Source of the DNA: Candidatus Parcubacteria bacterium
Lineage (GTDB): Bacteria; Patescibacteriota; Patescibacteriia; Magasanikbacterales; UBA922
Assembly (NCBI GenBank): GCA_002869205.1
Contig: PKTJ01000023.1
Coordinates: 1 to 48,440 of the forward strand
Length of the DNA: 48,440 nucleotides
Reading direction: 5' to 3'
This document shows positions 7,119-47,661 of this stretch, one piece after another; position 1 is the stretch's first letter; every line of letters begins with the position of its first letter. Position numbers and translations under genes: made by a program. The notes under the pieces were generated by a model. The model had not been told where the DNA came from. It saw only the letters and a program-made list of their open reading frames with translations, and made no database searches.

Positions 7119-7176
7119 CCTTTTAGAAGAGTTTAAAATGTGGTACAATAGTGCCACTTATTTTTTTAAAAAACCT

Positions 7177-7530
7177 ATGCAAGACATACAATCAGTATTC
7201 AACCGTATCCAAGAGTCAAAAAAAGAACAGCGAGATATTCGCAAAATGTACAAAGATGCATTGGACGGGGTGCAGGAATATCAAGAGATCCAAGAAAAAA
7301 CAAAATCACTTCGTGAAAAAAAGAAACGTATCGAAACAACAATTAAAGAACAATTTGCAAGTGAACTTACAAAACTGGAGGATCTCAAGATTGATATTGA
7401 ATCTGACACACAGATGATTACCGATATTGCGCTGAGTAAAATCACTAAGGGCGAAACAGTAGAAGTCACTGACCAGCATGACAATGAATATGAGCCAGTG
7501 TTTAATCTAAAATTTAAGAAGGTGAACTAG
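7177..7530 (+). CDS. hypothetical coiled-coil protein
   Basis: Start moved to the Met at 7177 because an extended -10 (TGgTACAAT, ~7140-7148) lies inside the longer ORF. The sequence is charged with heptad-like repeats. Confidence 0.45.
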   Translation: MQDIQSVFNRIQESKKEQRDIRKMYKDALDGVQEYQEIQEKTKSLREKKKRIETTIKEQFASELTKLEDLKIDIESDTQMITDIALSKITKGETVEVTDQHDNEYEPVFNLKFKKVN

Positions 7531-7536
7531 AATATT

Positions 7537-7570
7537 ATACGGATTTCCGGATAATCCAGATCTACGGATA
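7537..7570 (-). repeat. family-A element, truncated copy (A1)
   Basis: ATACGGATTTCCGGATAATCCAGATCTACGGATA matches the outer end plus one palindrome arm of the ~100-bp copies at 12130, 17027 and 32563. Confidence 0.6.
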
Positions 7571-8895: not shown

Positions 8896-9005
8896 TGTCA
8901 TTTCGACCGAAACCCGAAGAGGTGAAGTGGAGGAATCTTTTTTCTAAATAAAATTTTCTTTTAGAAAGAGATCTCTCGACTCGCTATCGCTCGCTCGAGA
9001 TGACA
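8896..9005. repeat. family-B gene-less inverted doublet (MITE-like)
   Basis: The left unit TGTCATTTCGACC...GGAGGAATCTTTT and right unit AGAAAGAGATCTCTCGA...CTCGAGATGACA are inverted copies. The outer termini are TGTCATTTCGA and TGTCATCTCGA. They match the repeats flanking the GIY-YIG genes. Confidence 0.65.
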
Positions 9006-9019
9006 ATAATCGCGAATCT

Positions 9020-9607
9020 ATGTCTCGAGAAGTGATACTCGACATCGAAACCATTGGAGATATTCGAAATTTTGATAGTTTACAAATTACCGTTGTTTCT
9101 ATTTATGAATATGAAACAGATACATACAGATCTTTTTACGAAGAAGAACTTGGAGATTTGTGGCCAATACTCGAAAAATCAGAACGTCTCATAGGATTTA
9201 ATAGTGAACACTTCGATCTTCCTATCATGAATCGATACTATACAGGTGACTTACTTGGTTTCCCGCACCTCGATCTCCTCAAAGTTGTAAAGGAATCAAC
9301 GGGGAAACGATACAAGCTCGATGATCTTGCAAAAGCAACACTTGATAATGTATCAAAGAGTGCGAGCGGTCTTGAAGCGATAGAATGGTGGAAAGAAGGA
9401 CGCAAAGAAGATGTAAAAAAATATTGTGAACAAGATGTGAAGGTGACAAAAGAAGTGTATGAATATGGAAAGAAAAATCAGATGTTATATTTCCCAACAC
9501 TTACTGGAGAGATCCAACCGTTTGGTGTGAACTTTGATCCGCCACCAGAACCAATGAACGCGAGTGGTGAAGAGAGTGGGGGAATTAATATGACATTACC
9601 ACTTTAA
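9020..9607 (+). CDS. RNase H-like / DEDD 3'-5' exonuclease family protein
   Basis: Motifs LDIETIG (Exo I), FNSEHFDLPIM (Exo II) and YCEQDVKVT (Exo III, Y-type). Confidence 0.6.
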   Translation: MSREVILDIETIGDIRNFDSLQITVVSIYEYETDTYRSFYEEELGDLWPILEKSERLIGFNSEHFDLPIMNRYYTGDLLGFPHLDLLKVVKESTGKRYKLDDLAKATLDNVSKSASGLEAIEWWKEGRKEDVKKYCEQDVKVTKEVYEYGKKNQMLYFPTLTGEIQPFGVNFDPPPEPMNASGEESGGINMTLPL

Positions 9608-12126: not shown

Positions 12127-12129
12127 AAA

Positions 12130-12231
12130 CTATCCTGATATCCTGATAATCCAGATTTTCCGGATACAATATCCGTAAATCTGGATTATTCCCGTAGATG
12201 AATGCCCTAGGGGTATCTGGAAATCCGTATC
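12130..12231 (+). repeat. family-A ~100-bp palindrome-containing element (A2)
   Basis: It contains TAATCCAGATTTtCCGGAT-N5-ATCCGTAAATCTGGATTA plus the conserved tail CCCGTAGATGAATGCCCTAGGGGTATCTGGAAATCCGTATC. It fills the nifS-nifU gap. A near-identical inverted copy lies at 17027-17127. Confidence 0.8.
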
Positions 12232-12245
12232 TAAATTATAGTAGT

Positions 12246-12911
12246 ATGAATAAGTCTAAAGGAGCATCCATTAGAGATAATCAAGGTAACTCTTGGTTGT
12301 ATTCTGATACAGTAAAAGAACACTTTTTTAATCCAAAAAATATTTTGTTTGCTGGCGAAGAAGAGGATTATCATGCTGATGCAATGGGAAGAGTTGGTTC
12401 TCCTGCATGTGGAGATGAGATGGTGTTGTGGCTCAAAATTGACAAAGATAGTGAACGTATTACTGAATGCAAATGGCAAACATTTGGGTGTGGTAGTGCT
12501 ATTGCATCCACCTCTATGCTTTCTGTCATGCTTTCAGAAAATGGTGGTATGACACTCGTTGAAGCACTCAATGTAAAACCGCAAGATATTATGGAGCGTC
12601 TGGGTGGTTTGCCAAATCGCAAAATTCACTGTTCGGTACTTGGTGACAAGGCATTACAGTCTGCAATCAATGATTGGTTTCGCAAGATGGGACAACACGA
12701 CCGCGTAGTTACTCAAGGTACAAAAATTATTGATGAAGCATTGAATATTACTGATCATGATATAGAAGAAGCGGTGCTTGAAGGTGCTCAGACACTCGAA
12801 GATGTGCAGAAAAAATTGAAAGTCGGTGCAGCAAGCCCAGAATCTGTCCCAGAAATTGAACAACTTATTAGATTTTATAGTGAAAAATATTATGGAGAAA
12901 CCTTTATCTAA
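12246..12911 (+). CDS. nifU: NifU/IscU-type Fe-S cluster scaffold with C-terminal extension
   Basis: IscU domain with three conserved Cys (GSPACGD, FGCGSAIAS, HCSVLG). The start was moved to the Met at 12246 because the longer ORF reads through repeat A2. Confidence 0.8.
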   Translation: MNKSKGASIRDNQGNSWLYSDTVKEHFFNPKNILFAGEEEDYHADAMGRVGSPACGDEMVLWLKIDKDSERITECKWQTFGCGSAIASTSMLSVMLSENGGMTLVEALNVKPQDIMERLGGLPNRKIHCSVLGDKALQSAINDWFRKMGQHDRVVTQGTKIIDEALNITDHDIEEAVLEGAQTLEDVQKKLKVGAASPESVPEIEQLIRFYSEKYYGETFI

Positions 12912-13336
12912 ATCCCGAACGTATGTGAGGGATCTTTCTTAAAGAAAAATGTCTTATGTACAATATGTGGGGAAAACTAATTATTACGTTTATATTTTAG
13001 CCAGTCTTAGTGGTGTTATTTATGTAGGTTTTACTGATTGTCTTGTAAAGCGTATAAAACAACATAAAAATGGATTTTACAAGAATGCATTTACGAAAAA
13101 ATATAATGTGCATAAGCTTGTATATTGGGAGCATTTTTTTCAAGGCAAGATGCACTTGATAGAGAACGACAAATAAAGTCATATAATCGAAATAAAAAAA
13201 TTAATTTAATTGAAAAAGAGAATAAACATTGGAATGATCTTTATCCTTTCATTATAGAATTGTCTAAGAGGCGTCCAATAATTTAGTTAATTAGCTATGT
13301 CATCATCAGGAAAGATTCCTCGCTCTGCTCGGAATA
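12903..13336 (+). mobile_element. degenerate GIY-YIG element bounded by inverted family-B hairpin repeats
   Basis: The left repeat (..ATCCCGAACGTATGTGAGGGATCTTTCTT, 12903-12940) and right repeat (GAAAGATTCCTCGCTCTGCTCGGAAT, ~13309-13336) are inverted copies bracketing the frameshifted GIY-YIG gene. Confidence 0.55.
12949..13286 (+). pseudogene. GIY-YIG nuclease (COG2827/UPF0213-like) interrupted by a frameshift in a T7 run
   Basis: Frame 1 gives YYVYILAS..IYVGFT..RIKQHK..LVYWEHFF, then stops at 13176. A -1 shift at the T7 run (13134-13140) continues as SRQDALDRERQIKSYNRNKKINLIEKENKHWNDLY up to the stop at 13286. This is collinear with, and the same length as, the intact copy at 19765. Confidence 0.65.
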
Positions 13337-13605
13337 TTAAAATAGAAGTTTGTTGTGGAGGGAACTGTCTTGGTAGAGGTTCTCAAAAAGTACTTGATAC
13401 CTTGGAAAAAGAATTTGAAAGTGCACAGATGTGTGGATGTCTAGGAAATTGTGGTAAGGGTCCAAATGTTTTGGTTGACGAGAAAAAAATTTTGCACTAT
13501 AGTAATGAACATACAGTAGTTGAACGTGTTAAAAATAAAGAAGGGGAAATGTTTAAACGTTTTAATGAAGAAGAATTAACTGATGATTTTTTAAACGATA
13601 TATAA
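13297..13605 (+). CDS. thioredoxin-like [2Fe-2S] ferredoxin
   Basis: Cys pattern CCGGNC ... CGCLGNCGKGPNV, typical of NuoE-like 2Fe-2S ferredoxins. The first ~14 codons are encoded by the family-B repeat. Confidence 0.6.
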   Translation: MSSSGKIPRSARNIKIEVCCGGNCLGRGSQKVLDTLEKEFESAQMCGCLGNCGKGPNVLVDEKKILHYSNEHTVVERVKNKEGEMFKRFNEEELTDDFLNDI

Positions 13606-16987: not shown

Positions 16988-17026
16988 ACGTTTGTCTTTG
17001 TATAAAAAAATATTTTTGAATATTGA

Positions 17027-17127
17027 GATACGGATTTCCAGATACCCCTAGGGCATTCATCTACGGGAATAATCCAGATTTACGGATATTATATCCGTAA
17101 ATCTGGATTATCTGTATATCAGGATAG
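17027..17127 (-). repeat. family-A element (A3), inverted relative to A2
   Basis: The reverse complement aligns almost base-for-base with 12130-12231. It lies in the divergent gap between the clpB and thpR starts. Confidence 0.8.
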
Positions 17128-17240
17128 TAAAAAAGAAGTAAGTTATTTATCACTCTAATAACCCGAGTGATAATACTATAACATTCTGGTAATTTTTGTC
17201 AACATATGATAAAATTATACCATATTTAGCTAAAAAAAGT

Positions 17241-18628: not shown

Positions 18629-18661
18629 ACAAGTGAAGGCCCCGTCCTTTCCCGCCGGGGC

Positions 18662-18865
18662 TCATGGATCTTTTCGCGAACCAACGTCGATCTTGGTGAT
18701 AGAGCAGAGGAGTGCGTTCCAATTGGCGCCTCGGAGGCGCGGCCCGTCAATTCTAATATTGCTCGGATGAGCAGACACGGAAATACCGGGCGCTGTGATA
18801 TGGACACATTCTCCTGTCGATCGCGCTTGATCGAGTTTTCTCCTGATCTCGGCAAGTGAGACCAT
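18662..18865 (-). CDS. orphan high-GC small protein (67 aa)
   Basis: The start was moved to the Met at 18865 because a consensus promoter lies inside the longer ORF. A GAGGGG SD-like site sits 6 nt upstream and a GC-rich hairpin follows the stop. No family recognised. The alternative frame 18625..18855 cannot be fully excluded. Confidence 0.35.
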   Translation of the reverse strand: MVSLAEIRRKLDQARSTGECVHITAPGISVSAHPSNIRIDGPRLRGANWNALLCSITKIDVGSRKDP

Positions 18866-18895
18866 TCCTAACCCCTCTCCGTATAGGAAGATCCT

Positions 18896-18928: not shown

Positions 18929-19693
18929 ATGTTACAAAAGAAAATAGCAAAACATCTTAAACAGCTTGGGCAAAAAAAGTTTCGCAAAGAATTCGAAGAG
19001 TTTGTCGTAGAAGGAATAAAAGGTGTGGGAGAAGCACTCAAGTCTGATGCAGAGGTGGTATTACTTGTGGTAGAAGGAAATAGGAGAGACGAAGATGAGA
19101 TTGCAAAACTTATTGTATTGGCGCAGCAAGATAATATTCCGGTAGAGTTTTGTGGACGAAAAGATGTGGATGAAATTAAGACAACGGATACGTTTCCTGG
19201 TGTGTTGGCTGTTGTAGGTCAAGAAGAAAATGATTTGGAAGATATTGTGGATGCTCCGATCATTTGTTTACATGAAGTAAAAGATCCGGGAAATCTGGGA
19301 ACAATTATAAGAACTGCAGATTGGTTTGGTATAAAAAATATTTTACTCAGTGAAGAGTGTGTAGATGTGTACAATCCAAAAGTGTTCAGAAGTACGATGG
19401 GTTCTCTATTTCACACAACTATTTTTCGTTCCGGAAACATTTCAAAGACGCTTGAAAGACTAAAAGAAGAATTTGACTATGAAGTGAATGCTCTTGATAT
19501 GGATGGTAATGATGTTAGTAAATTAAAATCAAAAAATAATGCAGTATATCTATTTGGAAGTGAATCTCACGGTGTTTCAGACACCCTTGAAGAGCTCATA
19601 GATAATCGCTATACTATATCTGGTAAAGGAGACGCAGAATCACTTAATTTGGCTATTTCTGCAGGGATTGTTCTTTATAAACTGTCATCCTGA
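18929..19693 (+). CDS. TrmH/SpoU-family RNA 2'-O-methyltransferase
   Basis: SpoU motifs DPGNLGTIIRTADWFG, LFGSESHGVS and SLNLAISAGIVLY. The last codons and the stop lie inside the left repeat of the GIY-YIG element. Confidence 0.8.
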   Translation: MLQKKIAKHLKQLGQKKFRKEFEEFVVEGIKGVGEALKSDAEVVLLVVEGNRRDEDEIAKLIVLAQQDNIPVEFCGRKDVDEIKTTDTFPGVLAVVGQEENDLEDIVDAPIICLHEVKDPGNLGTIIRTADWFGIKNILLSEECVDVYNPKVFRSTMGSLFHTTIFRSGNISKTLERLKEEFDYEVNALDMDGNDVSKLKSKNNAVYLFGSESHGVSDTLEELIDNRYTISGKGDAESLNLAISAGIVLYKLSS

Positions 19694-20136
19694 CCCTGAG
19701 CGACCAGAGGGAGTCGAATGGGGAAGGATCTCTCTTAAAAGGTGTGGGGCTAACACACCAAAATATGGTTAGACAACATAACTACTATGTATACATAATG
19801 GCAAGCGTCAGTAAAGTATTATATGTAGGCGTTACAAATGACTTAGTACGTAGAGCGATGCAACATAAATCTGGATTATTTGAAGGATTTACTAAAAAAT
19901 ATAATTGTAAACGATTAGTATATTACGAACATTTTACAGACATAAGAAAAGCTATAAAAAGAGAAAAAGAATTAAAAGGTTGGAAACGGTATAAAAAAGT
20001 TGAGCTTATTGAAGAAATTAATGTTGAATGGTCTGATCATTATCAGACCATAATAACGTTCTCTAGAATAAAACCAAGATAAATTATTTAAACATGAACG
20101 AGGTAAGAGAGATTCTTCACTGCGTTCAGAATGACA
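19683..20136 (+). mobile_element. GIY-YIG element with terminal inverted hairpin repeats (apparently intact copy)
   Basis: The outer termini are TGTCATCCTGA (19683-) and TTCAGAATGACA (-20136), whose reverse complement is TGTCATTCTGAA. The inner ends are AGAGATCC / GAGAGATTC. It encloses one 105-aa GIY-YIG ORF. Confidence 0.6.
19765..20082 (+). CDS. GIY-YIG nuclease family protein (COG2827/UPF0213-like)
   Basis: YYVYIMAS..LYVGVTNDLVRRAMQHK..LVYYEHF..AIKREKELKGW matches the GIY-(x10)-YVG and R/E core. The start was moved to the ATG at 19765. Confidence 0.8.
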   Translation: MVRQHNYYVYIMASVSKVLYVGVTNDLVRRAMQHKSGLFEGFTKKYNCKRLVYYEHFTDIRKAIKREKELKGWKRYKKVELIEEINVEWSDHYQTIITFSRIKPR

Positions 20137-20141
20137 GGATT

Positions 20142-21605
20142 ATGATAAAAACTAGATTTGCACCATCACCAACAGGATTTCTCCACGTAGGAGGATTGCG
20201 AAGTGCGCTTTATGCTTATTTATTTGCCAAGAAAAATGGCGGAACTTTTTTGCTTCGCATAGAAGATACTGATCGTGAAAGATTTGTAGAAGGTGCCGTA
20301 GAAAATATGGTAAGTGCGCTGCATTGGGCTGGGATTGCGATTGATGAGGGTGTGGATATGGATGAAGGCGACAAAGTGTTTCAAAAGGGTGATAATGGTC
20401 CGTATATGCAATCAGAACGTCTTGAAATTTATAAAAAGTATGTTGATCAACTTGTAGACCAGGGCGATGCGTATTATTGTTTTTGTAGTAAAGAACGTCT
20501 CACAGAAGTCCGTGAATACCAACAACTGAATAAATTGCCAACAGGGTATGATGGTCATTGTCGTGATCTAGATCTTTCAGAGGCAAAAAAACGCGTTGAA
20601 GCGGGAGAAGGTTGTATTGTGCGCATGAAAATGCCAAAGGAAGGAGTAACTACAATTGAAGATATGGTTCGTGGTAAGGTTGAATTTCAAAACAAACTTA
20701 TTGATGATCAAGTAATTCTGAAGGCTGATGGATTTCCAACATATCATATGGCAGTAGTTGTAGATGATCATGAAATGGGAATTACGCATGTAATCCGTGG
20801 AGAGGAGTGGCTTCCGTCAACACCAAAGCATGTTGCGCTTTATAATATGCTTGGATGGGAATTGCCGCAGTTTGCTCATCTGTCCATGTTGGTGAATGAA
20901 CAAAAACAAAAATTGAGCAAACGTCACGGAGATGTGTCAGTAGAAGATTTCAAAGAAAAAGGATATCTACCAGAAGCAATGGTAAATTTTATTGCATTTC
21001 TTGGTTGGAATCCAGGCGGTGATCGAGAATTATTTACCTTGTCGGAACTTGAAAAAGAATTTGATTTTGCAAAAGTTCACAAACCAGCTGCGGTTTTTAA
21101 TCGTGAAAAATTGGACTGGTATAATAAACATTATATTGCGAACTTGGATACAACAGAGCTTGTGGAAAGATGTAAGTCTTTTTTTACAAACCAAGGATTG
21201 GAATATGAGGCATGGAACATGGAACAGATTGTGAAGCTGGAGCAGGGGAGAGCAAATACATTACTTGAGCTTGTGGACAATGTAAGTTTTGTATTTGCAG
21301 AAAATTTAGAATATGATCCAGAATTAATTGTTTGGAAAAAATCTACACGTGAAGATGCAAAAGAAAAATTAACTCTTCTTTCAGAATTTTTAGAAAGCCT
21401 AGAAGGGGAGTGGTCTACAGGATTGCTTGAAGAAAAGGTTTTGCCTTGGATAAAGGACCAAGGATTTGGTAATGGTGATGTGTTATGGCCTACGCGTGTT
21501 GCACTTAGCGGTCAGAAGAATTCTTCTGGTCCATTTGAAATTGCAGGAGTGCTTGGACAAGAAAAAACACTATCTCGAATTAAAAAAGCTATCGAACTTC
21601 TTTAG
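20142..21605 (+). CDS. gltX: glutamyl-tRNA synthetase
   Basis: RFAPSPTGFLHVGG (HIGH-type) and KLSKRH (KMSKS-type). The start was moved to the Met at 20142 because the longer ORF reads through the family-B repeat. Confidence 0.9.
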   Translation: MIKTRFAPSPTGFLHVGGLRSALYAYLFAKKNGGTFLLRIEDTDRERFVEGAVENMVSALHWAGIAIDEGVDMDEGDKVFQKGDNGPYMQSERLEIYKKYVDQLVDQGDAYYCFCSKERLTEVREYQQLNKLPTGYDGHCRDLDLSEAKKRVEAGEGCIVRMKMPKEGVTTIEDMVRGKVEFQNKLIDDQVILKADGFPTYHMAVVVDDHEMGITHVIRGEEWLPSTPKHVALYNMLGWELPQFAHLSMLVNEQKQKLSKRHGDVSVEDFKEKGYLPEAMVNFIAFLGWNPGGDRELFTLSELEKEFDFAKVHKPAAVFNREKLDWYNKHYIANLDTTELVERCKSFFTNQGLEYEAWNMEQIVKLEQGRANTLLELVDNVSFVFAENLEYDPELIVWKKSTREDAKEKLTLLSEFLESLEGEWSTGLLEEKVLPWIKDQGFGNGDVLWPTRVALSGQKNSSGPFEIAGVLGQEKTLSRIKKAIELL

Positions 21606-32562: not shown

Positions 32563-32662
32563 AGATTCGGATATTCGGATAATCCAGATTTACGGATTCT
32601 ACATCTGTAAATCTGGATTATCCCCGAAGATGGATGCCCTGCGGGTATCCGGAAATCAGTAT
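32563..32662 (+). repeat. family-A element (A4)
   Basis: It has the same order and orientation as A2 (GATAATCCAGATTTACGGAT..ATCTGTAAATCTGGATTAT..GATGGATGCCCTGCGGGTATCCGGAAATC). It fills the gap between the Ham1-Nudix stop and the serS start. Confidence 0.8.
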
Positions 32663-42015: not shown

Positions 42016-43251
42016 TTAAGCTTCATCAATATTTACTAAATTAGATTCTCCTTCATTTCTCATTTTAACTTCAACACTGTTTTGCTCCAAAGTTTTTGGA
42101 CTTATGATGATTCTCTTTGGAATACCAATGAGATCGCTATCTGCAAATTTTTGACCTGGACGAACACCTTCTCGGTCATCATACAGGACTTCAATACCTT
42201 GGTCTTGTAATTTCTTGTATATTTCATCAGCTTTTTTGATATCTTCTTCATCGCGACAAAGTGAAACAAGGTGTACGCTGTATGGTGCGACAGACTCTGG
42301 CCAGACAATACCGTGCTCATCAGATAAGATTTCTACGATTGCCCCCATGAGTCGTCCAAGACCAATACCGTAAGAACCCATGAACACGTGTTTGTTTTCT
42401 CCGTTTTCATCTGCATATACGAGATCAAAAGGTTCTGAAAATTTAGTACCTAGGGTAAAGATATTACCTACCTCAATTGCTTTTTTCTCGACAAGTTCGT
42501 CTTTGTTCAATTCAAGTTCAGATAGTACTTCATCTGTGTATACTTCTTTGTTCACTGCCAATTCTTTTTTCTCATCTACGTAAATGGTATCTTCACCAGC
42601 ATCAGTAATGGCTTGGAACTCATGTGAAAATTTTGAAAATGTACCACCTGAAGCAAACGTGATGTAGGTTAATTCTCCAATACCAACACGATTGAAAATA
42701 TTCTTGTATGCGATTTTTGATTTTTCATAAAAGTCGTTGTGTTGTTCCTCATCTTTTGAAAATGAGTACAATGCTTTCCAGAAAAATTCACGACCTCTCA
42801 TGATACCAGATTTACTTCTTGTTTCATTTCGAAAAATTTCTTTGAAATCATACGGATAGACAGGTAAATCTTTGTATGAATGTATATATTGTTTTAGAAT
42901 ATTTGAGTAGGCTTCTTCATTGGTAAAAGATAAGCCTACCTCTGTGCCATTTTTTAAGCTTGTTTTAAACCAATTATCCACGACACTGTCATCCCAACGG
43001 TTTGATTTTTCCCAGACCTCTTTGTTTTGTAATATAGAGGTCTTCATCTCCATACCGCCTACCACATCCATTTCTTCTCTGATAATATCTTCAATTTTTT
43101 TCATTACACGCAATCCTAATGGTAGATAGGTATAAACACCAGCCATTTCTTTGTGCAAAAATCCTGCTCGGATCAATAATTGAGCATTTTTGGAAACCTC
43201 GTCACTTGGAGCTTCTTTTCGTGTTTTGGTGAACAATTGTGTTTGTCTCAT
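42016..43251 (-). CDS. proS: prolyl-tRNA synthetase, short form without the large editing insertion
   Basis: Bacterial-type N-terminus (MRQTQLF.KT.KE.PSDE..KNAQLLIRAGF), class II core and anticodon-binding C-terminus. It is only 411 aa. Confidence 0.8.
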   Translation of the reverse strand: MRQTQLFTKTRKEAPSDEVSKNAQLLIRAGFLHKEMAGVYTYLPLGLRVMKKIEDIIREEMDVVGGMEMKTSILQNKEVWEKSNRWDDSVVDNWFKTSLKNGTEVGLSFTNEEAYSNILKQYIHSYKDLPVYPYDFKEIFRNETRSKSGIMRGREFFWKALYSFSKDEEQHNDFYEKSKIAYKNIFNRVGIGELTYITFASGGTFSKFSHEFQAITDAGEDTIYVDEKKELAVNKEVYTDEVLSELELNKDELVEKKAIEVGNIFTLGTKFSEPFDLVYADENGENKHVFMGSYGIGLGRLMGAIVEILSDEHGIVWPESVAPYSVHLVSLCRDEEDIKKADEIYKKLQDQGIEVLYDDREGVRPGQKFADSDLIGIPKRIIISPKTLEQNSVEVKMRNEGESNLVNIDEA

Positions 43252-43655
43252 AATTCTAGATTAGTTGTTGAAGAATTTTTGTGTTTTATTGAAATGGTAA
43301 ATGAAATAACTAGTATAAATATCACGAATAGAAGTAACGCGTTCCAGATGTTTAAAAATCCCCCACCTCGTAAGTACAAAAACATAATAATGAAGGCGGT
43401 GATAAAAACTGATTGTTTGAAACTAATTTGTACATAGCGGAATAGTGGTAAGTCTCGTGATGCAAACAATTTGTAAGACAGGAACGTAAGAAGAGATATT
43501 GTTCCGAGAAGCGCCAGAAAGAAGCTCATATAAAAAAAGACAAATCCCAGATAAGTGGTCTGGAATGGATCAACATTGATAATCACAAATACCCAAGATA
43601 TCCAACACAGGATGGTTGCAAATAGCATGGTAAAGATGTATTGGCGAAGGGTCAT
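43248..43655 (-). CDS. hypothetical polytopic membrane protein
   Basis: 135 aa with four hydrophobic helices and a 4-nt overlap (ATGA) with proS. Confidence 0.5.
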   Translation of the reverse strand: MTLRQYIFTMLFATILCWISWVFVIINVDPFQTTYLGFVFFYMSFFLALLGTISLLTFLSYKLFASRDLPLFRYVQISFKQSVFITAFIIMFLYLRGGGFLNIWNALLLFVIFILVISFTISIKHKNSSTTNLEL

Positions 43656-43659
43656 ATAG

Positions 43660-43786
43660 TGTAATCTCGAATCCGAACGATAGTGAGTGATGAGAGATCT
43701 TTCTTACAAAGCGCACCTCTCTTTGGCTATTTTGTGAATTAGAGGTGTTTAATTTATGAAAGATTCCTCACTCTGTTCGGAATGAA
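43660..43786. repeat. family-B gene-less inverted doublet (MITE-like)
   Basis: The left unit TGTAATCTCGAATCCGAACGATAGTGAGTGATGAGAGATCTTTCTT and right unit GAAAGATTCCTCACTCTGTTCGGAATGAAT are inverted copies. A central CACCTCT/AGAGGTG hairpin lies between them. The doublet starts 5 nt from a gene start. Confidence 0.65.
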
Positions 43787-44709: not shown

Positions 44710-47661
44710 TTACAATTGTCTAAATTCACAAATTTCTTTGAAATCGCAATATTTACACACATGTTTTCCTGGTGTTGGTGTGAAGTTTCCCTCTCTGATT
44801 TTTTCCATTACACCGAGGAGTTTTTGTTGTAATTTTTCCATGTCTTTGTCTTTGCCAACAAACGAGGTTTTCAGATCATCATTTACATAGTAGAAGGTTA
44901 GTTTTCCTACCTCACCAATATTTCGATATTCAGGCAATGTCTGAGCAGCAATCTGATAGATGAGAAGCTGTTGTTTGTCATCTGTGGCAAGCTTATCCTT
45001 ACCTTTTCCAGTTTTGTAGTCAATAATTTCAAGTGTGCCATCTTCTAATTTGTCTATACGATCAATACGACCATTGATGAGGTAATCCCCTACTTTGATT
45101 TTGAAGAAACCCTCAAGACTTACTGGTACTGTCCAGTTGTCTTCCTGAGAGGTGTAAAAAACTTTAAGAATATCCTTTCCTTTTTTATAATAACTCTCAC
45201 GTTGTTTTTTACTTTTATACCAGTCTCCTATCCATTTGTCCTCATACATTTCCAGAAGCTCTTCCATATTTGGCACTTTTATGCCATTCGCCTTTGTTTC
45301 TGAGGGTTTTTCAGCAGGTAGTCCGAAGAGTGAGGCTTGTTTTACATTGTTTAGTTCCTGAACACGTTCGTAAAATTCTTGCAGTGTGTTGTGAATACTA
45401 TTACCAAAACTAAATGCCGCACTACCTTTCATAGGGATTTTCAAAATATGTGCAAGTTTGTATTGATATGGGCAACGTTGATATGAATTGAGTTGAGAGA
45501 ATGAAAATTTTGATGGAGGTGTGTACTCAAATTCACCAACATCTGTTGAAGTTACTTCATTGTTAAAATGTTTCATTGTGTTTTGAGGGTCTTTGTTTTT
45601 TTCAATCACTTCCTTTCCCTCTGTGGTGAATCCGAGTTCATGCAAGAATCTACTTACTTTCTTTTGTCTCACACCCCCATAATTATCTGCACTACTAAAG
45701 AAGAGGTGTTGTTTTGCACGTGTTGCTGCTACATAAAACAGACGTCTTTCTTCTGCATAATGTATATCATTTGATTCAGGTAGAGACTCTTTTATGAGTT
45801 CGTCTGGTAAATCTATGTCTCCGCCGCGTCTCCGTGTAGGGAATCTTTCTTCTACACAATTTACTACAAAAACATATTTGTATTCCAGACCTTTGGCACC
45901 GTGAACAGTGATAATATTGACTGAATCAGGTGTGTCAGTTGGTTGATACATTTTTCCACCATCCCCTGATTCGATAATATAGTTATAATGTTCTACAAAT
46001 CCAGCCACATGTGCTCCGGGGATTGCACGTTCATAGTTTGAAATAAGATCAAAAAGTTGCTTGAGGTGATATATTTGTCTAATCACTTCTCTATTTCCTT
46101 GATTCTCTTCGTGTGTAAGATATGAAAAATAACCACTGCTTTCCATAAATTCATATAGGATCGAAGTTGGTTTTTCAAATTTTATGTGCTTCATTCCATC
46201 GTGCACCCAGGCGATTAAGTTGCTCGCAATGGTGACTCCTTCTGGTGATATATAAAATTCTTTTGATCGTTTTAGTGCCTCATAATAACTTATTGACTTC
46301 TTTTTTGCACTGGCAGTTATTTTTTGTATATCATTTTCTGTGAATTTCAAAAATGGCATGCGTAAGAGTCTATACCAGGCTCTATCATCTTGGATGTGTT
46401 CGAGGATGTTTAAAAAATTTATAGCATCAAGTACTACTGGCTGACGATAAAGTCCGGATGAGGCAATAAATTCATATGGTATACCCGAGGATTCTAATCT
46501 GCTCAAGAAAGGTTCTGTATGACTATTCGCACGCACGAGAATCGCAAAGTCATCCCAATCTGCAGATTCTTTTTCACGTATATCACTGATTTTTTGTATT
46601 ACACCAGCTACCTCATCATCGAGAGTGGAAAAATGCAAATGTTCTACATTTCCTTTAATTTTAGCCTTGGATTCAAGCTTTTTATCAAGTCCTAATTTTT
46701 CTTCTAGTCTCTCAGGATTATTATTCAAAATACTTTTGTATGCAAGATCCAAAATCTCTTGTCCCGAGCGATAGTTTTCTGTAAGTACTATTTCTTTTGC
46801 TTGTTTGTAATCTTCTTTAAACCTCATGATGATGGATACGTTTGAACCGCGAAATGCATAGATAGATTGATCGTCATCTCCCACAACAGTGAGTTGAGAA
46901 TCTTCTCCTGTCAGAAGTCTGATGAGCTGGTATTGAGCCCAGTTTACATCTTGAAATTCGTCTACAAGAATATACTTAAATCTCTCTTGAAGTTTCTTTA
47001 AAATATTTGGACGTTCTTGTAATAGCTTTACACAATAAAAAATCAGATCACCAAAGTCTAATGCCTGATTGTCTAGAAGTAACTGGTCATATGTGTGATA
47101 TGCGTTGGCGATTTCAACACGTTTATTTTTTTCTTGAATCTCCGCTTCATCTTTGTCGAGAGTCAGACCTTCTGCATATTCCAGATAATCTTTTGAAGTA
47201 ATTAATTCATCTTTTGCTTTTGAAAAATGTGAAAGTAGGGTGTGAATTTGTCCGGTTGGGTTACCGAGTGGACGATAATAATCCAAATTAAAATCATAAA
47301 TATGTTCTCTTACAAGAAGCCATGCGTCTGTTCCAGAAAGAAGTTTGAAATGTGGAGGTAATCCTAAATCTACGCCATATTCTTCGAGAAGCCTCTGACA
47401 AAAGGCGTGAAATGTGGAAATTTGAAGATCAATGTAACCTATTTCAAGCATTTCATCCACACGTTCCTGCATTTCTGCAGCAGCCTTGTCAGTAAACGTG
47501 AGAGCCAATATTTCTTCAGCCTTTGCTTTCTTGGAATCAATAAGATGGGTAATCTTTTGTGTCACCACCGTTGTCTTCCCTGTACCTGCCCCCGCAACAA
47601 TCAGAAGAGGGCCGTCGTTGTATTCGACTGCCTCGCGTTGTGCTTTGTTTAGTTTATACAT
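44710..47661 (-). CDS. UvrD/PcrA/AddA-type superfamily 1 helicase fused to a C-terminal PD-(D/E)xK nuclease with a Cys cluster
   Basis: AGAGTGKT (Walker A), VDEFQD (motif II) and VHGAKGLEY. The C-terminus has C...GRIDRID..IIDYKTG...CKYCDFKEIC (AddB/Cas4-like). The start was moved to the ATG at 47661 because the GTG-initiated extension runs into the high-GC block. Confidence 0.85.
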   Translation of the reverse strand: MYKLNKAQREAVEYNDGPLLIVAGAGTGKTTVVTQKITHLIDSKKAKAEEILALTFTDKAAAEMQERVDEMLEIGYIDLQISTFHAFCQRLLEEYGVDLGLPPHFKLLSGTDAWLLVREHIYDFNLDYYRPLGNPTGQIHTLLSHFSKAKDELITSKDYLEYAEGLTLDKDEAEIQEKNKRVEIANAYHTYDQLLLDNQALDFGDLIFYCVKLLQERPNILKKLQERFKYILVDEFQDVNWAQYQLIRLLTGEDSQLTVVGDDDQSIYAFRGSNVSIIMRFKEDYKQAKEIVLTENYRSGQEILDLAYKSILNNNPERLEEKLGLDKKLESKAKIKGNVEHLHFSTLDDEVAGVIQKISDIREKESADWDDFAILVRANSHTEPFLSRLESSGIPYEFIASSGLYRQPVVLDAINFLNILEHIQDDRAWYRLLRMPFLKFTENDIQKITASAKKKSISYYEALKRSKEFYISPEGVTIASNLIAWVHDGMKHIKFEKPTSILYEFMESSGYFSYLTHEENQGNREVIRQIYHLKQLFDLISNYERAIPGAHVAGFVEHYNYIIESGDGGKMYQPTDTPDSVNIITVHGAKGLEYKYVFVVNCVEERFPTRRRGGDIDLPDELIKESLPESNDIHYAEERRLFYVAATRAKQHLFFSSADNYGGVRQKKVSRFLHELGFTTEGKEVIEKNKDPQNTMKHFNNEVTSTDVGEFEYTPPSKFSFSQLNSYQRCPYQYKLAHILKIPMKGSAAFSFGNSIHNTLQEFYERVQELNNVKQASLFGLPAEKPSETKANGIKVPNMEELLEMYEDKWIGDWYKSKKQRESYYKKGKDILKVFYTSQEDNWTVPVSLEGFFKIKVGDYLINGRIDRIDKLEDGTLEIIDYKTGKGKDKLATDDKQQLLIYQIAAQTLPEYRNIGEVGKLTFYYVNDDLKTSFVGKDKDMEKLQQKLLGVMEKIREGNFTPTPGKHVCKYCDFKEICEFRQL

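Follow-up and report, generated by a model that had tools for sequence, protein, structure and literature searches.

The 48,440-nt stretch of DNA analyzed here (the window; contig PKTJ01000023.1 of a Candidatus Parcubacteria bacterium) carries, between its trmH and gltX genes, a small GIY-YIG nuclease gene, ssn, enclosed by inverted hairpin repeats, and this locus (element 1) is likely a Patescibacteria member of the Ssn/SRM system, with the flanking units as its cognate SRMs. The original prediction, made from the letters of the window without database searches, was unaware of any description of such a family. Chenal et al. (2025, Nat Commun, PMC11893778), however, have characterized Ssn and its flanking hairpin repeats and drawn the comparison with REP (repetitive extragenic palindromic) sequences and RAYT; the locus is therefore a further example of a published system and no new category of element. 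A literature search on COG2827 and on GIY-YIG combined with REP, transposase, or Patescibacteria found no further description. Movement was merely hypothesized in the 2025 paper; the window and its relatives provide clean comparative evidence in the form of exact ends, empty orthologous sites, deletion derivatives, and at least five insertion loci. These comparisons identify SRM-ssn-SRM as a discrete cassette with exact TGTCAT...ATGACA ends that lies at different loci in different genomes, and they support the view that the cassette is mobile, with nonautonomous derivatives resembling MITEs (miniature transposable elements with inverted repeats).

The product of the intact open reading frame (ORF) contains a single recognizable domain, Pfam GIY-YIG, at residues 6 to 76 (E=5.6e-15). 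N. meningitidis SsnA is a 94-aa single-domain GIY-YIG protein (CDD cd10448; PMC11893778). Our comparison was made with its N. gonorrhoeae orthologue, a 94-aa ORF that has Y6, Y17, and E64 as published and is surrounded by 9 canonical matches to the Neisseria hairpin repeat NTS in 3.3 kb. The window protein is 51% identical to this orthologue over its full length (pairwise BLASTP, E=4e-29), and tblastn against a 7.3-Gb database matched it to the N. gonorrhoeae chromosome at E=4e-19, within the working homology criterion used in the paper (E<1e-10 to SsnA). Its residues Y10, Y20, and E67 align with the published catalytic Y6, Y17, and E64 and are invariant across 30 homologs. By this homology the ORF belongs to the Ssn nuclease family. 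Profile searches of the protein against NCBIfam and PHROGs gave no matches, and a PADLOC hit (Effector/Endonuclease PDLC00747; E=0.0061, 13.7 bits) was too weak to be taken as informative. As an aside, two N. gonorrhoeae chromosomes are listed among the plasmids of PLSDB, including the 2.17-Mb NZ_CP119140.1, of which positions 1880787 to 1884056 served as our Neisseria locus (L171).

SsnA binds NTS (CGTCATTCCCGCGMAVGCGGGAATCYRG) solely as single-stranded DNA and cleaves a few nucleotides upstream; the three nucleotides preceding the stem (GTC) weigh most for cleavage and the C following the stem for binding (PMC11893778). In both Neisseria and Wolbachia, the hairpin repeat is bound only if single-stranded and is cut a few nucleotides 5' of GTC (PMC11893778). 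These SRM determinants (5' GTC, stem, and 3' C) are found in the window units. Alignment of all eight arms in the window yields one unit, TGTC-AT[YYY]-GA-loop-GA-[RRR]AT-C-TTTCTTA, arranged as four pairs, each with its TGTCAT ends directed outward. All eight units retain the C that follows the stem, and four retain GTC, namely those of the intact element and of the gene-less pair at 8896-9005. The units represent a variant in which the stem is 5 bp long and extended by tandem GA/GA, and the loops span 7 to 38 nt. Loop length at the left end differs between related elements (29 nt in the window, at 19694-19722; 7 nt in L165; 14 nt in L084; 38 nt in L164), and the longer left-end loops resemble nested GA-bounded mini-hairpins.

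The unit is far commoner in the window than expected by chance. A strict structural definition scanned over the window found 7 units per 48 kb, all 7 within the four pairs (the eighth unit carries one G-T mismatch), and a 25-nt degenerate pattern for the right arm found 3 sites, compared with 0.00 in shuffled sequence. The stem, and with it the claim that each repeat can fold into a hairpin, is supported by covariation and not by folding energy: among 134 units taken from other genomes with only GTCAT..GA...GA..ATC held constant, 117 were complementary at all three free stem positions, with 9 triplet types. Rfam has no family over the window units, whether the gathering threshold is applied or E values as high as 10 are admitted, and none at the gathering threshold over the units of 10 related loci, including Bacteroidota; a "COG2827 RNA motif" was without support in these scans. 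Two further candidate units from a loose 12-mer search (48055 and 13678) lie inside coding sequence, form no hairpin, and were rejected.

As predicted, the ssn ORF is bracketed by inverted repeats, in two pairs of arms: inner arms at 19723-19737 and 20104-20118 (15 nt, 93% complementary) and outer arms at 19682-19693 and 20126-20137 (12 nt, 92% complementary). The outermost bases of element 1 are TGTCAT (from 19683) and ATGACA (to 20136). Its left end encodes the final L-S-S-stop (TGA) of the SpoU/TrmH gene, the Pfam profile of whose protein stops at residue 250 of 254, and its right end abuts gltX, 5 nt before the ATG at 20142. Gene callers instead place the gltX start at 20094, within the element, which gives a 503-aa call; the 16 in-frame codons thus added (MNEVREILHCVQNDRI) are the translated right hairpin unit, and gltX of relatives begins MIKTR. 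Housekeeping genes are thus given false extensions by the units at the N and C termini, of which this call is an example. Repeat-derived tails also occur on several database homologs (e.g., RDPSLRSG and CHPEG). Element 1 is present in all three independent assemblies of the same species (L001 to L003, 99.6 to 99.98% identical), and the small stem-loop just upstream of its ssn gene is kept in the L165 and L172 elements at other loci. Coordinates are collected in Table 1.

Table 1. Hairpin-flanked elements, their parts, and a second repeat family in the window
Feature	Position	Strand	Remarks
Element 1, complete SRM-ssn-SRM	19683..20136	+	Between trmH stop and gltX start
Left hairpin unit, TGTC-ATCCT-GA-(29-nt loop)-GA-AGGAT-C-TCTCTTA	19683..19737	+	
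Small stem-loop, GGTGTG-GGGCTAA-CACACC	19741..19759	+	Just 5' of ssn start codon; sequence reading
ssn, intact 105-aa single-domain GIY-YIG nuclease (Ssn family)	19765..20082	+	Pfam and SsnA homology
Right hairpin unit, TGTC-ATTCT-GA-ACGCAGT-GA-AGAAT-C-TCTCTTA	20104..20136	-	
Element 2, old decayed unit	12903..13339	+	nifU / 2Fe-2S ferredoxin gene
ssn copy 2, frameshifted	12949..13286	+	Break in T run near 13134-13140
Gene-less inverted pair, intact TGTCAT ends	8896..9005		Between promoter-like TATGGTAAAATA and ATG at 9020
Gene-less inverted pair, degenerate outer ends TGTAAT / ATTCAT	43660..43786		
Second palindromic family, copies	7549-7569, 12171-12191, 17067-17113, 32577-32623		

The closest homologs of ssn copy 1, the intact gene of element 1 (64 to 89% identical), occupy at least five different loci: after a Na/Ca exchanger gene, Na_Ca_ex (P0001, 89%), after guaB, on a contig that ends at the right terminus (P0002, 83%), after atpG (P0003, 80%), between guaB and purA (P0004, 76%), before an ATP synthase alpha/beta-family gene, atpA or atpD (P0005, 76%), and between DUF3467 and dnaJ (P0009, 64%). 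Every end of these elements that lies within a contig bears the same kind of unit, with the TGTCAT tag intact except at the left end in L166 (TTTTCAT). Element 1 and the L165 element, which lies after guaB, share 84.8% identity over 414 nt; similarity ends precisely at ATGACA, with no relation between the flanks.

Comparison of orthologous sites shows them to be empty, paired, or full among relatives; the repeats are not fixed, so mobility, as proposed in the original prediction, stands unrefuted. The gene order wecG-trmH-gltX is kept in about 30 relatives, and in about 15 with this order the trmH|gltX junction is empty, with 3 to 39 nt between the genes. Elsewhere the junction holds a gene-less pair (L084, L091, and L110), a full element (L089 and L112), or remnants (L096 and L097); these unit-bearing junctions amount to seven loci and six distinct sequences, since L089 and L112 look identical. 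They fall in at least four clades of a TrmH tree, each with an empty sister, although the tree is a crude neighbor-joining one built from a single 254-aa protein and carries no support values. Against L169, in which the site is empty, homology with the window breaks at 19669 and resumes at 20145.

The window and the related locus L167 differ at four sites. At trmH|gltX the window has the full element, L167 a gene-less pair, and L169 nothing. Between nifU and the ferredoxin gene, the window has a frameshifted ssn, L167 an intact orthologue, and L169 a FeS_assembly_P gene. Upstream of a 195-aa gene (window 9020-9607), the gene-less pair at 8896-9005 is missing from the orthologous site in both L167 and L169, and after a 130-aa ORF (window 7138-7530; 117 aa in L167) it is L167 that holds a gene-less pair and the window that has none. 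No ssn gene and no units were found across the 20.7-kb stretch of L169. The gene-less pair shared by L084 and L167 retains the first 11 and last 58 nt of element 1 and is without the inner 385 nt. Since it retains GAACGAGGTA[A/G]GA[G/A]AG, which lies inside the gene-bearing elements of the window, L165, and L172, the alignment identifies it as an internal deletion of a full element. The proposal that MITE-like derivatives exist is thus borne out, both by the gene-less pairs themselves and by this deletion product.

Both GIY-YIG genes of the window are flanked by the repeats, as the original prediction had it for a second, frameshifted copy, which lies in element 2. The copy is split into frames at 12949-13176 and 13125-13286, and an independent assembly (L002) has the identical break, with a truncated 75-aa gene call. 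Its identity is 50% to copy 1 and 92% to the intact orthologue that the corresponding element of L167 holds. GTC is gone at both ends of element 2, where TAA (the nifU stop codon) remains on the left and TAAT on the right; the ferredoxin ORF begins inside the element, at 13297, so that, as predicted, the element contributes to both neighbors. Homology between the window and L169 stops at 12910 and restarts at 13339. In L169 and L170, nifU and the ferredoxin gene are separated by a FeS_assembly_P gene of 95 aa (L169, 10675-10997); the window (12911-13338) and L167 are without that gene and have an ssn element in its place. The two predicted gene-less pairs, at 8896-9005 and 43660-43786, were likewise found, the latter 4 nt from the start of a minus-strand gene (43248-43655).

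We propose that Ssn would nick each strand just outside the element once the ends are single-stranded and folded, as might happen, for instance, at a replication fork or in DNA that the cell has taken up, and that host replication or repair would afterwards copy or relocate the unit. Gene-less pairs with intact GTC ends, such as that at 8896-9005, could be acted on in trans, and loss of GTC, as in element 2 and the pair at 43660-43786, would leave a unit behind as an immobile fossil. Such nicking is in keeping with where GTC persists: it is kept in element 1 and the lineage-specific pair at 8896-9005 and lost from the older element 2 and from the pair at 43660-43786. Because the units face outward, cleavage is predicted to fall at the boundaries of the element, which makes self-mobilization directly testable. 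The only insertions to survive in compact genomes would be those that restore the upstream stop codon and spare the downstream start codon, and the flush fit to gene ends would follow because other insertions would be lost. The targeting of gene ends suggested earlier may reflect the survival of insertions in a genome with almost no intergenic space. Whether SRM-ssn-SRM is a true autonomous transposon, with a GIY-YIG single-stranded DNA nuclease as its sole enzyme, host-assisted copying, and the gene-less pairs as MITE-like derivatives, is a more tentative matter; we hold this to be possible and, for now, somewhat doubtful. If it is true, we know of no earlier class of mobile elements in prokaryotes whose movement depends on a GIY-YIG enzyme.

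Several observations weigh against these interpretations, some against the assignment to the Ssn/SRM system and others against autonomous movement. The published SRM search pattern, HGTCWYN(0-2)YYVSBRHN(0-5)WNVSBRGN(0-2)RNCYNB, has no matches in the window (0.04 in shuffles), and this miss is real, since the same code, applied to the 3.3 kb around Neisseria ssnA, recovers 9 sites. In Neisseria the GTC ends are turned toward the gene, whereas in the window they face outward. Single units folded as single-stranded DNA are no more stable than shuffled sequences (z of -1.0 to +1.6), and inspection of the 4 nt outside about 16 element ends revealed no target-site duplication or consensus. GIY-YIG enzymes hydrolyze DNA and are not known to perform strand transfer; thus, Ssn alone would be unable to complete transposition. 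The two ssn copies in the window are only 50% identical, so that nothing points to recent movement within this genome. Finally, element 2, with its dead ends, was already fixed when the window and L167 lineages separated, yet the L167 gene is intact, which suggests selection for a host-level function.

This last point leads to the reading in which Ssn and the SRMs are a domesticated system that serves the cell, for example by trimming or restricting incoming single-stranded DNA or by shaping recombination, with presence and absence explained by deletion and repeat recombination rather than by transposition driven by Ssn. In N. meningitidis, SsnA lowers the integration of transforming DNA that bears NTS about 5-fold (PMC11893778). 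The distribution of gene copies is also in keeping with such a role: in L167 the element 2 gene is intact between dead termini and the gene at the other site is lost, as if at least one working copy were kept, and the window has one intact and one broken ssn. A domesticated system would, however, leave unexplained how the cassette, as seen in close relatives of copy 1, spread with exact ends to at least five unrelated operons, and why a gene-less pair with intact ends sits where both relatives of like gene order have nothing. We regard it as rather unlikely as the full account, although it is compatible with membership in the Ssn/SRM system and the two are not exclusive.

Alternatively, the SRM pairs could be independent REPIN-like elements, and ssn a selfish homing passenger inserted or swapped by means of the repeat arms. 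Such arms would provide portable homology, and the sister lineages represented by the window and L084 do hold a gene-bearing and a gene-less pair at the same trmH|gltX junction; the L084/L167 pair, however, is a deletion derivative of a full element rather than an unoccupied target, and we consider this alternative improbable. We give still less credence to the idea that the units are RNA-level terminators, stabilizers, or attenuators whose placement beside ssn serves its regulation. All four Patescibacteria examples with both neighbors known sit in co-oriented operons, so the units are probably transcribed, and RNA roles for REPs have been proposed (Di Nocera et al. 2013, PMC3733652). Against it stand the lack of Rfam matches to the units in the window and in the 10 related loci, the absence from the units of the T-run of an intrinsic terminator, the published result that SsnA does not bind RNA (PMC11893778), and the movement of the cassette between loci, which RNA hairpins would leave unexplained.

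Among known systems, the closest is the published Ssn-NTS/SRM arrangement. The window shares with it a single-domain GIY-YIG protein of about 100 aa that conserves the catalytic residues of SsnA, a gene flanked on both sides by oriented hairpins composed of GTC, an AT-initial stem, and C, and repeats of the same kind scattered elsewhere without a gene. It differs in its host, here Patescibacteria (Magasanikbacteria-like), in the AT-richer 5-bp stem with tandem GA and the longer range of loops, and in that the element is wedged into operons, where it supplies stop and start codons. The window repeats also fit the CGTC-tagged REP superfamily, which includes dRS3 and RPE-4/RPE-6, often has TGTC as its tag, has 8- to 9-bp stems and 4- to 5-nt loops, occurs chiefly in Alphaproteobacteria, and members of which "apparently lack a dedicated transposase" (PMC3733652). 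The likeness lies in the unpaired CGTC/TGTC tag, the A-T character of the first two stem pairs, the C-initial short tail, and the prevalence of inverted dimers, often "heterodimers" that differ in the stem, as do ATCCT and ATTCT in the window. The window stem, by contrast, is 5 bp plus GA/GA, and its loops are longer. Should SRM-ssn-SRM prove to be a true transposon, these long-orphan repeats (dRS3 and RPE-4/6) would gain a mobilizing enzyme.

Chenal et al. likened NTS-ssnA-NTS to an insertion sequence, to IS200/IS605, and to REP/RAYT (PMC11893778), so that the analogy with REP/RAYT made in the original prediction was already in print; it carries over to the window in layout and not in enzymology. 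As in REP/REPIN-RAYT and IS200/IS605, one small enzyme gene is accompanied by many gene-less inverted doublets and by flanking hairpins that its product recognizes, or in the window would recognize, as single-stranded DNA. IS200/IS605 elements lack target-site duplications, and none was seen at the roughly 16 ends inspected here. The enzyme of the window, however, is a GIY-YIG hydrolase and not an HUH (Y1) tyrosine transposase, and no covalent intermediate or strand transfer is therefore expected. In IS200/IS605, moreover, both ends are cut on the same strand, whereas the window ends are symmetric, which would give one cleavable end per strand. GIY-YIG homing endonucleases of the I-TevI type share the catalytic domain and a selfish-element lifestyle; unlike them, the window Ssn is without a DNA-binding domain and without intron or intein context, and its substrate would, by analogy, be a single-stranded hairpin rather than a double-stranded homing site. 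The UPF0213/YhbQ/SLX1-like proteins (PDB 1zg2 and 1ywl) are also small GIY-YIG proteins, formerly grouped under COG2827, but they form a separate family, to which the window Ssn is only distantly similar (1zg2, E=5.4e-6, 30 bits) and for which, to our knowledge, no association with repeats is known.

The variant found in the window is widespread. With a looser definition applied to 70 ssn-homolog loci from many phyla, a unit lies within 200 nt of the gene in 49, against a background of 0.37 units per kb; the arrangement of the window occurs in 32 of the 70 loci and the opposite orientation in 12. The GA..GA form accounts for 128 of 264 distinct units from loci in other phyla, and the published SRM pattern is found near the gene in just 8 of the 70 loci. 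That pattern misses the common variant GTCAT-YYY-GA...GA-RRR-ATC, for which reason the published figures, an SRM near the gene in 71% of Ssn homologs and on both sides in 42% (PMC11893778), are probably underestimates. Candidatus Desulfacyla euxinica has two copies of a 517-bp unit that are 98.6% identical and lie at different loci of one genome (L022 and L025, 2874-3390 in each). In this unit a canonical NTS-ssn-NTS lies within a further, outer terminal inverted repeat (GCATTACCAGTTTGTTAAAG), and it represents either a larger type of element or capture by another transposon.

Other features of the window and its relatives were noted. The window has a G+C content of 37.7%, and its proteins match those of Patescibacteria, chiefly Magasanikbacteria. 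Between wecG and trmH is a G+C-rich island about 260 nt long (18630-18890; 54 to 57%, compared with 38% for the genome); Rfam gave no match to it, and on neither strand does it fold better than shuffled sequence. Among relatives, the distance from wecG to trmH varies between 13 and more than 400 nt, indicating another insertion/deletion polymorphism. The window also holds six copies of a second, unrelated family of palindromic repeats (GGATAATCCAGATTTACGGAT), compared with 0 expected. Two of them are perfect 21-nt hairpins, a 108-nt version occurs as inverted copies at 12129-12236 and 17022-17128 (94% identical), and one copy occupies the very site at which L167 has an SRM pair. A subthreshold Rfam match to the C. 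difficile sRNA n00280 (45683-45783, minus strand; 44 bits against a gathering threshold of 65, E=3.9e-4) lies inside a 1,000-aa ORF and probably reflects coding similarity to the helicase gene that hosts n00280. Lastly, L167 carries at 1492-1852 a group I intron (87 bits) in a tRNA gene, adjoining a serine recombinase gene.

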